A stretch of 64,000 bases of DNA. It comes from an uncultured bacterium (GTDB taxonomy: Bacteria > Patescibacteriota > Minisyncoccia > Phycocordibacterales > CAIRYW01). Both the position numbers and the translations under genes were made by a program. The stretch is from contig CAVYBO010000002.1 of assembly GCA_963766885.1 (NCBI GenBank), forward strand, positions 293,048 to 357,047, read 5' to 3'. Numbering within the stretch: the stretch's first letter is position 1; every line of letters begins with the position of its first letter. The notes under the pieces are model-generated. The model worked only from the letters and a program-made list of their open reading frames with translations, ran no database searches and was not told where the DNA came from. Below are positions 51,454-55,838 of this stretch, in pieces.

Positions 51454-52278
51454 CTAAACAAATTTTTGATTGTTTAATATTAAGTTATAAATCTCTGAAA
51501 GAAAATGTGCAAAAGATAATTCATCCATTATATAAGAAGATGGATGAGCGCAACTATTTCTTATATCAAAAAGATGTAAGATTGCTTGAAGTTGATTTAA
51601 ATCTAGAGAAATCATACCGGAAATTATAATAGTTAGGTCTTTTTCAAAAACCTCTTGTAATTCATTTTCAATTTTAATATTAAATTCTTTATTAAATTTT
51701 TTATAAAATCCAGACTGACTTGCTTTTAGTTTTTTTGATGTTGAGTTGAAACTAGCAAAACCTTTTTTTATTACAAAATCACGAAGTCTATCGACAACGG
51801 CACATCCTGCCATAACAGTCGCTGCTTTATAACATTGATTTTTTGCAGCCCTAAAAGCTTCTTCGTAGTATTGTCTTTCATCATTCGAAGTAATCTTTAC
51901 AAGAATTTTTTGAGATATACCTTCCCAAACCATCGGCGAGGAGCGCCCAGTTCTAATCATCGGGATCAAAATATCTCTCTGTATATTTTTTCTTAAGGGA
52001 CTCAAAAGCGCAATGTATGAACTTTTTCTGTTATTAGCAGTTGACATTTGGATCATCTTTTCCATTACTGAATCTACTTTGTTTATCTCTTCGTCAGAAA
52101 TAACAGACTCTTTTCTTATTTTGGTCGAAAACTCCTCAAACCAACGGCTTGAAAGATTAGATATTTTATCTTTAAGATTTTTTTGAGAGATAAAAGCAGA
52201 TTTGTTTGCTCTTATCTTGTTTACTACATCATCGACATACGTTAGATAGGTCTCAAGTTCCTCTATTATTTCTTTCAT
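51454..52278 (-). CDS. Putative HEPN-domain protein (Rx4H motif), abortive-infection-like
   Basis: 274 aa. C-terminal LHLFDIRNSCAHPSSY contains R-x4-H in the context typical of HEPN RNase motifs. Otherwise alpha-helical. Confidence 0.45.
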   Translation of the reverse strand: MKEIIEELETYLTYVDDVVNKIRANKSAFISQKNLKDKISNLSSRWFEEFSTKIRKESVISDEEINKVDSVMEKMIQMSTANNRKSSYIALLSPLRKNIQRDILIPMIRTGRSSPMVWEGISQKILVKITSNDERQYYEEAFRAAKNQCYKAATVMAGCAVVDRLRDFVIKKGFASFNSTSKKLKASQSGFYKKFNKEFNIKIENELQEVFEKDLTIIISGMISLDLNQLQAILHLFDIRNSCAHPSSYIMDELSFAHFLSEIYNLILNNQKFV

Positions 52279-52286
52279 TTAATTTC

Positions 52287-52889
52287 CTAAGAGGCAAGCT
52301 CTTTTACCAAATCTGCAGCTAACTTTTTACCAATTGGAGAAAGTTTGTTTGTTGTTCCAGGTTTAAATCCAGCAAAAATTTCTTTCATTGCTTTAAGATT
52401 TGTTGTAAAATTTGCAGCGTCATATGTACCATAAGTCACACACATTTCTCTAAGCTCCTCAGTTGGGACATCAAAAGAGCCCTCCATAAATTGATGTCTT
52501 ATTCCTATAAGCAATGCAAGATTTTTTTGTCTTCGGCTAGTTTTATTAGATTTAAGATCAGTGACTTCAATACTTATATTCCCTAATTCATCTATACTAA
52601 AAACTTTACGGATTAAATCATCACTAATACCGTTTGGGGTTGTAAAGACTTTTATTCTTTTGTTTACTTCATTAGGAATATCTGATACACCCGCAACAAT
52701 AGTATCAGTTATTGAAACCGGAGGTTTATGAGATTCTCCTTTTAGCAAAGAATTTAAGAGAATTTCGAAGCATTTTTCCTGAAGGTTTTGGGGGCACAAT
52801 TTAACTAGTTCAAGAATTTCCTTTAACTCTTTTTTAAAATCATCTTTTTGCATGGCTAAAATAATAACACAAATTTCTTTATAGGCCAA
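52287..52889 (-). CDS. Hypothetical protein (200 aa), in an operon with the flanking defence-like genes
   Basis: 8-nt gap to the downstream HEPN gene. No known domain. Confidence 0.4.
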   Translation of the reverse strand: MAYKEICVIILAMQKDDFKKELKEILELVKLCPQNLQEKCFEILLNSLLKGESHKPPVSITDTIVAGVSDIPNEVNKRIKVFTTPNGISDDLIRKVFSIDELGNISIEVTDLKSNKTSRRQKNLALLIGIRHQFMEGSFDVPTEELREMCVTYGTYDAANFTTNLKAMKEIFAGFKPGTTNKLSPIGKKLAADLVKELAS

Positions 52890-52958
52890 GCTTATTTTGA
52901 ACTACTCTTAGATCTTCTAACATAATTCTAAACAGCCGTATCTCTTGATAAATAATTA

Positions 52959-54359: not shown

Positions 54360-54430
54360 TATACCCCTCTAGGTCATTTGGTACGATTTTTAAACGGCTG
54401 GACGTCTGGAACGATGTTGGAACTGTATTG

Positions 54431-55121
54431 CTAAGATAGCCAAGTGATACCATCTTTGTCTATTCGTGCCGAATTAATCGGTAATCCTATGTCTGGCGTG
54501 CCAGCGTCAATTTCAAGTTGTACAAGAAATCTCGCTCCTTTTTCTGTCGAAATGATACTCCCGGTACCATGTTTTTTTAGATATTCTTGAATTACTTTAG
54601 CGTGGCCAAGATAAAAAATATGTCTACCTGCAAGTCGCTCTGTGTCAATAATTAGTTCTCCTTTTTCATTTAACTTTGCAGCGAAACGAATAGCGATAGT
54701 AGAAGGCCCATCCATTCTCCCAATGAGCAAGAATGACACATGTTCCTTTCTTATCACCTTCAGTTTCATTTTTAAAAACATCTGGTTCATTAGTTTTAAT
54801 TTTAAGTAAGAATTTCTTAAGCGCTTCCGAAATATTTGTTTCTAATTTATTAATTGTACTAGGAACTGTCTGACCATCCTGTATGGAAGCTTCAACTATT
54901 TTAGCTACATCAAAATCCCCACCGTGATGTTTTACCAAACCACTTACCCCGAAGAGATTGTCTTTATATTCAAAAAGTTTTTTTACTTCACTTTGACTTT
55001 TTTGTTTTCCTCCACCAACAAAAGTACCCATTCCGTCAGCTGCAATTACAACCATTTGAGAATTTTGAATTGCAACAATAGTTGTTCCATAACGTATTGT
55101 TTTTTTGATTTTTTTTATCAT
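54431..55121 (-). pseudogene. HslV / proteasome-beta-like Ntn hydrolase with a 12-aa propeptide, split across two frames (frameshift or sequencing error)
   Basis: Frame 1 (55121-54666): MIKKIKKTIRYG|TTIVAIQNSQMVVIAADGMGTFVGGGKQ...KKLFEYKDNLFGVSGLVKHHGGDFDV aligns with HslV [21 protein letters not shown]...[23 protein letters not shown]. Frame 2 (54790-54431) continues with HVSFLLIGRMDGPSTIAIRF..., proteasome-like. The two frames overlap by 125 nt. Confidence 0.6.
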
Positions 55122-55163
55122 TATAAATTGGAAACAATAAAATAGATACTCCTTTTAATTGGC

Positions 55164-55838
55164 TCAATTTTCTTCAATATTTTGTAGTAGTTTACTCATA
55201 AGAGTAAAAACCCTATCGAAATTCTTCTTCGAATCTAATTTAGTTTTTTGTCCTATCGGTACTAAAGATTTAATAACCCTTTTCATTTCATTTCGAAATT
55301 TTGAGTTTGTTTTATTCCCCGAATGCTGAATTATATTTCTTATAGAATTTAAAACATTAAAATAATGCCCCTGTTTATCATCTTTAAAGACTTTAATATT
55401 AAATTTTTCTAATAAAAATTTTTTCCACTCTTTGATTTCGTAGGATTTATTAATAGCAAATGCATCAATAAAATATTCTTTTACTTCCTCAACATTAGAA
55501 AAATCTTTTACGTCATCATATGTTGCCACTTTATCAGAAGAGTAGGACTCAGGATATTTAACAAAAAGCTCTTTCAAAAACTCAAACATAAAACATTCAA
55601 AATTAGAGAAAAAGGCAACAAAACCCAATTCGTAGAGTTTATCAATCTGTTTTGGATCTACTTCAAGTAAATCCTTAAATTTTTCATAATCAGGTCGCGT
55701 CTTTGCTTTTGTATAGTTCAAAAATTCTTGAGTGGCAATCGTTTGAGCTTCTAGTGCACGTATAAGTTTATAGGTAGCCTGAAGTTCACCCTTTAGATTT
55801 ATTACTGAATCAAATTTATTTAAGTTTTTTATAGTCAC
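55164..55838 (-). CDS. Putative HEPN-domain protein (Rx4H motif)
   Basis: 224 aa. C-terminal NVLNSIRNIIQHSGN contains R-x4-H. All-alpha. Confidence 0.45.
   Translation of the reverse strand: MTIKNLNKFDSVINLKGELQATYKLIRALEAQTIATQEFLNYTKAKTRPDYEKFKDLLEVDPKQIDKLYELGFVAFFSNFECFMFEFLKELFVKYPESYSSDKVATYDDVKDFSNVEEVKEYFIDAFAINKSYEIKEWKKFLLEKFNIKVFKDDKQGHYFNVLNSIRNIIQHSGNKTNSKFRNEMKRVIKSLVPIGQKTKLDSKKNFDRVFTLMSKLLQNIEEN

Follow-up and report, generated by a model that had tools for sequence, protein, structure and literature searches.

Conflict-type genes in the probable cargo arm of an integrated element from Patescibacteriota, including a partner-less AbiEii-WYL-zinc-finger protein

The gene cluster and its probable mobile element

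The stretch of DNA analyzed here (the window) comprises 64,000 nucleotides of contig CAVYBO010000002.1 (assembly GCA_963766885.1, positions 293,048 to 357,047) from an uncultured bacterium of the Patescibacteriota, and seven of its open reading frames (ORFs), G-F-E-D-C-B-A, share the minus strand between positions 51454 and 57834. With a probability of about 0.7, we read this stretch of genes as the cargo arm of an integrated mobile element in a small-genome host, being a mosaic of independently distributed conflict-type genes and not one co-evolved system. The original prediction had grouped five of them (E, D, C, B, and A; F and G lie upstream on the same strand) into a single multi-gene defense system, where HEPN RNases would accompany an AbiEii-WYL enzyme and an orphan HslV-like protease. 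The co-directional arrangement of A, B, C, and E is borne out, all of them being minus-strand ORFs. The single system is not, since the gene order is found nowhere else in the loci compared. The genes are as follows:

51454-52278, minus strand: gene A, 274 aa, C-terminal HEPN-like domain, with RNSCAH at 51544-51561
52287-52889, minus strand: gene B, 200 aa (188 aa from the ATG used in the independently assembled locus L008), no family
52959-54359, minus strand: gene C, 466 aa, probable start M4 (54350), AbiEii/MenT-type nucleotidyltransferase (NTase) with WYL-type domain and zinc finger
54431-55121, minus strand: gene D, proteasome/HslV/BPH-like Ntn hydrolase, frameshifted in the window
55164-55838, minus strand: gene E, 224 aa, HEPN-like, with RNIIQH at 55323-55340
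55923-57005, minus strand: gene F, 360 aa, no family
57049-57834, minus strand: gene G, 261 aa, first of the cluster, with an N-terminal hydrophobic segment and an HELGH motif, putative metalloprotease-like

The conservation of this arrangement was evaluated in 49 genome loci that contain relatives of C, with flanks of at most 10 kb on either side of C and one genome per species, for a total of 806 ORFs; the pattern search behind these loci favored close relatives of C. A phmmer comparison over the 806 ORFs reveals no relative of A, B, D, E, F, or G. Also, the family profiles of D and E find no relative in the same loci at E ≤ 1, the positive controls being fine. The analogy that had been drawn with HEPN RNases paired with a minimal nucleotidyltransferase (MNT) does not apply either, because C is of the AbiEii type and not an MNT, and B and D separate it from A and E. 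Given that the gene order is not conserved, that this analogy fails, and that D is broken, a five-gene system with a processing protease is unsupported.

On the other hand, the surroundings of the cluster are those of a mobile element. To its right, the plus strand contains a 290-aa ORF, a replication initiator, and a large serine recombinase, and the main features on this side are:

57866-57984, minus strand: LOOT RNA (Rfam RF03000), full-length match, 91.4 bits versus a gathering score of 46.4
59202-59978, plus strand: rolling-circle replication initiator Rep (phrog_3419, E = 8.9e-29; PF23343 REP_ORF2-G2P on an identical protein)
60004-61518, plus strand: large serine recombinase (NCBIfam XisF, CcrA, and CcrB matches, E = 1e-15 to 1e-20)
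61458-61530, minus strand: tRNA-Gln (CUG), found by ARAGORN and by the Rfam tRNA model

The tRNA-Gln is the probable integration target. Moreover, the GC content is 0.29-0.37 between about 41 and 58 kb of the window. The presence of Rep, the serine recombinase, the tRNA-Gln, this drop in GC, and the LOOT RNA leads us to consider the cluster as the cargo of an integrative element. The region is then a defense-type island in a loose sense, and there is nothing unusual in a mobile element bearing such an island. Within 40-64 kb, the ends of the element are not marked by long direct or inverted repeats.

The 3' end of the serine recombinase gene overlaps the tRNA-Gln of the opposite strand by 61 nt (window 60004-61530). 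The same kind of overlap between a serine recombinase and an opposite-strand tRNA is observed in two related loci (L033, 5458-7021; L031, 4515-6239), and this recurrence suggests a shared family of tRNA-targeting elements.

The LOOT RNA shares the strand of G and precedes it by 31 nt, within a divergent intergenic region. It is also observed near relatives of C in three loci labeled as Patescibacteria (L033, 9753-9871, minus strand; L022, 10351-10475, plus strand; L029, 865-982, minus strand), each time in a divergent intergenic region and at most 55 nt 5' of a same-strand ORF, the identity of this ORF being variable. In L033, it heads an operon ending in the serine recombinase that overlaps a tRNA. 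Since LOOT recurs near relatives of C, and in one locus with a homologous serine recombinase nearby, it may be a part of the element (a leader, a regulator, a small RNA, or a single-strand origin) rather than a part of the defense genes. Literature searches on LOOT function gave nothing relevant.

Gene C and its family

The protein encoded by C is organized in three regions, all of them on the minus strand:

53490-54359, minus strand: NTase domain, residues 1-290
53232-53462, minus strand: divergent WYL-type beta-barrel, residues about 300-376
52962-53099, minus strand: C-terminal CCHC zinc finger or ribbon (C426, C429, H446, and C454)

The NTase domain matches the Pfam family AbiEii (PF08843) with an E value of 6.9e-24 and 85.5 bits (cut-off 22.5) and the best PADLOC AbiEii model with an E value of 3.6e-47. 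Its motifs are invariant in the homolog alignment, these being GGN at residues 51-53, R64-x-S66-x-D68-x-D70 (54144-54170), D148, and K190/R197/D202. A search of PDB sequences with this domain returned nothing useful. An AlphaFold model built with an alignment of 42 homologs reached a predicted local distance difference test score (pLDDT) of 80, and according to it the closest structural relatives of C are tRNA-modifying toxins rather than signal synthases.

For the segment of approximately residues 300-376, the fold comparison with this model gave scores of 10.3 for PafBC, 10.2 and 10.1 for DriD, 9.9 for BrxR, and 8.8 for CapW, and about 6.6 for Hfq, the barrel being Sm-like and superposing on the solved WYL domains. 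However, the full-length protein has no match to the Pfam WYL family (PF13280), and isolated WYL segments score 12-17 bits, under the cut-off of 21.8, although WYL is the best match in 6 of 10 members. The WYL assignment is then supported by the fold and by the ranking of isolated segments, but it stays below the Pfam threshold. As for the zinc finger, C426, C429, H446, and C454 are invariant across the aligned homologs, weak matches to C2H2 fingers are found, and residues 421-465 contain strands in the model. Based on the profile, fold, and invariant-residue evidence, the AbiEii-WYL-zinc ribbon architecture initially proposed for C was essentially right.

Homologs of C fall in 773 database clusters at E ≤ 1e-3, and the best 120 of them show 64-73% full-length identity to the query. 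In a set of 42 members, the pairwise identity is 60-87% (median 68%), with all domains about equally conserved. The relatives come from metagenome-assembled genomes (MAGs) labeled as at least 12 phyla, although these are MAG labels and binning errors are possible; the labels include Patescibacteria, Omnitrophota, Bacteroidota, Planctomycetota, Pseudomonadota, Desulfobacterota, Verrucomicrobiota, Acidobacteriota, Actinomycetota, Campylobacterota, Bdellovibrionota, and one Methanosarcinales archaeon. C belongs to a family of hundreds of members that is strongly conserved, uncharacterized, and without a partner.

The lack of a partner refers to AbiEi, the antitoxin gene that precedes canonical AbiEii directly, in most cases with an overlap. 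In the window, the gene upstream of C is D, and no protein of the cluster matches AbiEi in Pfam, PADLOC, or NCBIfam. Among relatives of C, no AbiEi is found by Pfam in 11 upstream neighbors, nor among the best 25 of the 85 PADLOC families listed for 28 neighbors, where a weaker match is possible. Plasmid relatives with 38% identity (Sphingomonas and Sinorhizobium) are without AbiEi, like the clade with 60-73% identity. In contrast, full-length relatives with 27% identity carry an overlapping canonical AbiEi, for example, locus L074 on the Rhizobium plasmid NZ_CP121664.1 (3226-5428). AbiEi is kept beside the 27% relatives and not beside those with 38% or 60-73% identity, so loss or replacement of the partner seems to have occurred inside the fusion family.

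What lies upstream of C instead is highly diverse. The ORF directly upstream runs in the direction of C in 30 of 47 loci, at a distance of -17 to 89 nt, and is on the opposite strand in 11. These neighbors include an SMC/AAA_21 ATPase, an M48 peptidase whose gene overlaps C by 4 nt, ThiF, RelA_SpoT, a YhcG nuclease, Hypoth_Ymh, DUF4145, and small membrane proteins, two of the clusters of upstream proteins (c7 and c30) being membrane proteins. Swappable effectors are typical of CBASS-like systems, and the close spacing of so varied a set, often a membrane protein, a peptidase, a RelA_SpoT enzyme, or a nuclease, would fit a modular pair in which C is a conserved sensor or regulator, or a signal-making NTase, and the gene directly upstream, here D, is its exchangeable effector. 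Nonetheless, we find this improbable. Three of the upstream clusters (c19-c21) were read by inspection, without a profile, as glyoxalase-, SnoaL-, and racemase-like, that is, metabolic-type proteins, and other neighbors are parts of complete systems of their own, as in the neighborhood that contains a complete type I restriction-modification system with an SMC-like ATPase. Moreover, the upstream ORF can be on the other strand, the largest recurrent upstream effector family covers at most 4 loci, and the closest structural relatives of C are tRNA-modifying toxins and not signal synthases.

A general association between C and HEPN proteins was also considered and dropped because the Rx4H motif is present in 11 of 46 neighbors of C relatives, about the chance level according to a rough estimate of ~24%.

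Several C loci have mobile-element features of their own. Serine recombinases homologous to that of the window are found by phmmer within 10 kb of C in 7 of the 49 loci and tyrosine integrases in about 6. A gene for an XRE-type helix-turn-helix (HTH) protein precedes C in about 15 loci; none is present in the window. In five loci (L009, L016, L018, L022, and L036), a unit formed by the XRE HTH gene, a variable cargo, and C lies between inverted repeats 22-200 nt long (L016, 1-37/3501-3537; L022, 418-617/3690-3874; L036, 1-68/4784-4851; L009, 1-22/2783-2804). These repeats contain copies of AAACCAAAAATTTCCTTTCC, and contigs often start or stop inside a repeat, so the unit could be an invertible or mobile cassette. 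The short contigs bearing C are not circular, and the repeat motif is absent from the window. No relatives of C are found in viral contigs (sequence and alignment scans) or in phage records.

These observations bear on whether C works for the element, in its maintenance or as one of its core functions (addiction, or an accessory of replication or transfer), instead of being a defense or toxin gene. The pairwise identity of 60-87% across phyla, the serine or tyrosine recombinases within 10 kb in about 13 of the 49 loci, the units flanked by inverted repeats, and the LOOT RNA nearby in 4 loci would agree with such a role. We nevertheless assign it a low probability, considering that many C loci have no recombinase within 10 kb, that no copy of C occurs in phage records or viral contigs, and that the inverted-repeat motif is missing from the window. 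Furthermore, a role as an addiction toxin would imply the same biochemistry as the toxin function that we propose below for C within the mosaic cargo.

Judging from its variable neighbors, from the searches that found no AbiEi, and from the nearby recombinases, C appears to behave as a self-sufficient gene that travels in defense islands and integrative elements. Taking its fold and motifs as observed, and its substrate, gating, and defense role from the biology of MenT, AbiEii, and DriD, we infer that C could be a single-polypeptide toxin or abortive-infection enzyme of the AbiE/MenT type. It would add nucleotides to the 3' ends of tRNA, and translation would stop, as with MenT/AbiEii toxins. 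The WYL-zinc-finger module, whose counterpart in DriD, CapW, and BrxR is a sensor of nucleic acids or ligands, would take over the control that AbiEi supplies in trans. It would keep the enzyme inactive, for example through auto-phosphorylation of S66, and release it on the appearance of a ligand derived from the infection, such as single-stranded DNA. A wider proposal is possible, although we regard it as doubtful: proteins of this type could be a widespread single-gene AbiE, where the fused WYL-zinc-finger sensor replaces AbiEi and switches on a tRNA-modifying NTase during infection, ferried in Patescibacteria by tRNA-targeting elements with a serine recombinase, a rolling-circle Rep, and LOOT in their core.

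The other genes of the cluster

The region 54431-55121, which had been described as one HslV-like gene, has 691 nt and is not a single ORF in the window. One base divides it into two ORFs that differ in frame, 54666-55121 with 151 aa and 54431-54790 with 119 aa:

54710, plus strand: extra A that breaks gene D

Run ERR11630394 was assembled independently in Logan, apparently from the same genome, and over 18.5 kb the resulting locus L008 differs from the window by base 54710 alone. L008 encodes an intact D of 229 aa. The public annotation of the 596-kb contig holds the shortened product of 151 aa (P0121). Since no slippery sequence is present at this position, the extra base reflects a mistake of assembly, a variant within the population, or a recently formed pseudogene.

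Intact D begins with a basic, non-hydrophobic prepeptide of 12 aa, in which Gly12 precedes Thr13 (junction RYG/TTIVA), and this Gly-Thr junction, together with the assignment to the proteasome/HslV-like Ntn hydrolases, is the part of the initial description that stands. An exhaustive HMMER search collected 269 representatives of the family at E ≤ 1e-3. The family profile matches BPH in the PDB (5ovu) with an E value of 3.2e-6 and HslV with about 1e-3, aligned from Thr1 on, and this match by sequence is confined to the N-terminal 50-110 residues. D itself scores 20.8 bits against PF00227 (19.9 for the repaired protein), under the cut-off of 22.4, and 28 of 60 relatives match this family at E ≤ 0.01. 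In an alignment of 60 sequences, T13 and K48 are kept in at least 90% and D29 is invariant, so that Thr1, Asp17, and Lys33 are retained. From these comparisons, the D family appears to be divergent, with BPH as its best solved relative. A structure prediction of repaired D without an alignment gave a pLDDT of 37.6 and was unusable.

Among 111 relatives of D with a recognizable Thr1 motif, 95 bear a hydrophobic leader resembling a signal peptide, and in 83 an Ala or Gly is found immediately before Thr1; many also have a CPGDC motif (the relatives are proteins P0122 and P0137-P0284). The leaders and the Ala or Gly residue suggest that most relatives could be exported, with the nucleophile exposed by signal peptidase. 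D from the window has neither the leader nor CPGDC. Secreted proteasome homologs are unmentioned in the 2021 survey of Fuchs et al. (PMC8665760), and likewise CPGDC.

Relatives of D were found beside a TPR membrane protein in one case and among housekeeping genes in others, and the contexts seen show no link to AbiEii or HEPN genes. For the metagenome scan, wide alignments were too diverse, and an alignment of four sequences gave 8 loci. No relative is present in phage records. The absence of an HslU partner, already noted in the original prediction, holds for the ORFs covered by family scans (the cluster genes, H, I, Rep, the recombinase, and ten other large ORFs, the PEP-utilizer array ORFs being outside this set). 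In our reading, D is a cytoplasmic branch of a proteasome-like Ntn-hydrolase family whose members would mostly be secreted; the frameshift inactivates it in this assembly, and no evidence ties it to its neighbors.

Genes A and E had been proposed as HEPN proteins by their C-terminal motifs, IRNSCAH and IRNIIQH, and both RNxxxH signatures are present (RNSCAH, residues 240-245 of A; RNIIQH, residues 167-172 of E) and kept in homologs, but the curated profiles are weak or sub-threshold. In A, the match to Pfam HEPN_RiboL-PSP has an E value of 8e-4 and 19.8 bits, under the cut-off of 28.4, and a protein identical to A has a precomputed assignment to PF27235 (AF_1680). Its sole homolog found, a Mycobacterium plasmid protein, shares the RNxxxHP sequence (RNSCAHP in A and RNDAGHP in the plasmid protein) and the first helix. 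The first HEPN helix of A (residues 128-162) also resembles PDB entries 9wx2 and 9wxf, named 'Dandelion', at a marginal E value of 0.008-0.02. Literature searches on 'Dandelion' HEPN and on AF_1680 returned nothing relevant, and no relatives of A are found in viral contigs. The neighbors of A are B and one convergent ORF. B has no detectable relatives or family in profile and plasmid searches, the plasmid search giving a single weak A-like match and no relative of B. As B ends 8 nt before A, it is possibly a partner of A.

For E, the residues R167, N168, and H172 are invariant in 14 sequences with 50-57% identity. The PADLOC model CARF_HEPN_CSX20 (E = 1.5e-4, residues 135-215) is its sole profile support, with no Pfam or PDB sequence match. 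The neighbors of E in the window are F and D. Its homologs in Patescibacteria-type contigs are located among housekeeping genes (HIT, RNase H, RecJ, and ComEC-type) or unannotated ORFs, and no D-like or C-like neighbor is found in these neighborhoods. No relationship between A and the E family emerges when profiles of the two are compared. HEPN is the best reading of the motifs of both proteins, and A and E would be unrelated, independent HEPN-type RNases, A perhaps acting together with B.

Some points weigh against a mosaic of independent genes. The intergenic gaps are 43 nt for G-F, 84 nt for F-E, 42 nt for E-D, 71 nt for D-C, 69 nt for C-B, and 8 nt for B-A, and seven same-strand genes at distances of 8-84 nt could form one transcript, so a functional coupling specific to this lineage is conceivable. 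Promoter and terminator scans of the region were no better than with shuffled sequence. In addition, a rare conserved pairing has perhaps been missed because D and E have few close relatives and the sample of 49 loci is biased toward C. The HEPN calls for A and E rest on motif conservation and sub-threshold profile matches, and only one distant A-like protein was found.

Even so, one new five-gene defense system, with protease D controlling or maturing the HEPN RNases and the AbiEii-WYL enzyme, is very improbable and close to refuted by the lack of conservation: it would agree with the co-directional, closely spaced genes, with the conflict-type or protease domains of all four annotated genes, and with the Thr1, Asp17, and Lys33 retained in D, but no pair of genes co-occurs in the 49 C loci or in the contexts of E or D, D is frameshifted here and its family would be mostly secreted, and PADLOC recognizes AbiEii alone in the cluster.

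The remaining two genes gave little. No family was found for F in Pfam, PADLOC, NCBIfam, and phrog scans, and the matches of G are faint (phrog_87 metalloprotease, E = 0.03; Peptidase_M50B, E = 0.056). Elsewhere in the window, 41844-49549 contains a tandem array of paralogs, with one PPDK_N gene followed by several genes with PEP-utilizers domains. The array has a family of 221-nt repeats with 62-76% identity to the reference copy and shares with the island a low-GC stretch (0.30-0.35). Two further ORFs, 27026-30592 (minus strand, 1188 aa) and 36116-37501 (minus strand, 461 aa), have no NCBIfam match at E ≤ 1e-5.

Relation to known systems

The multi-gene defense system that was proposed does not hold, and three leads remain, none of them being a demonstrated result. 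The first is the partner-less AbiEii-WYL-zinc-finger family, a candidate for control in cis of an AbiE/MenT-type toxin. The second is a proteasome-like Ntn-hydrolase family with members that are, by appearance, mostly secreted. The third is a first genomic context for the orphan LOOT RNA, located here beside a Rep/serine-recombinase module and in L033 with a serine-recombinase operon.

Genes A and E resemble the HEPN-MNT systems in the Rx4H (RNxxxH) signature of HEPN RNases. However, no minimal nucleotidyltransferase adjoins either of them, and homologs of E occur alone. The D family resembles HslV and BPH in its alignment from Thr1 and in keeping Thr1, Asp17, and Lys33, but only its N-terminal part matches by sequence, and no HslU is found in the ORFs scanned. 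It also differs in the signal-peptide-like leader and the CPGDC motif of most relatives, whereas D from the window lacks both and is frameshifted.

With respect to the WYL domain, the regulators DriD, CapW, BrxR, and PafBC have an N-terminal winged HTH and act on transcription, whereas in C an enzyme occupies the position of the HTH and a zinc finger is added. Among the fusions listed by Makarova et al. in 2014 (PMC4012209), there is already one that joins WYL to an AbiGII-like DUF1814 enzyme, and the AbiEii-WYL fusion is also annotated in databases. The literature searched contains no characterization of the NTase-WYL fusion family, which is uncharacterized, partner-less, and unusually conserved.

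C shares the MenT/AbiEii fold with the MenT toxins, and also a Ser located two residues before the DxD metal site (S66, D68, and D70), a match with the MenT phospho-acceptor established by inspection of the spacing and not by a residue-level structural alignment. In MenT3, the corresponding residues are R76, S78, D80, and D82, and auto-phosphorylation of S78 is the route by which antitoxins silence the toxin (PMC11375011); in MenT1, the arrangement is T39/D41xD43. Nonetheless, MenT3/TglT and MenT4 from Mycobacterium tuberculosis are 15-17% identical to C. Moreover, MenT proteins have about 290 aa and separate MenA antitoxins, whereas C is a fusion without an adjacent antitoxin.

The last comparison is with AbiE. 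C has the DUF1814/AbiEii NTase domain with all the conserved motifs, and it is located among defense-type genes on a mobile element. It differs in having no AbiEi gene, either in the window or among the scanned neighbors of close relatives, and in carrying about 170 extra C-terminal residues, which form the WYL-type domain and the CCHC zinc finger.

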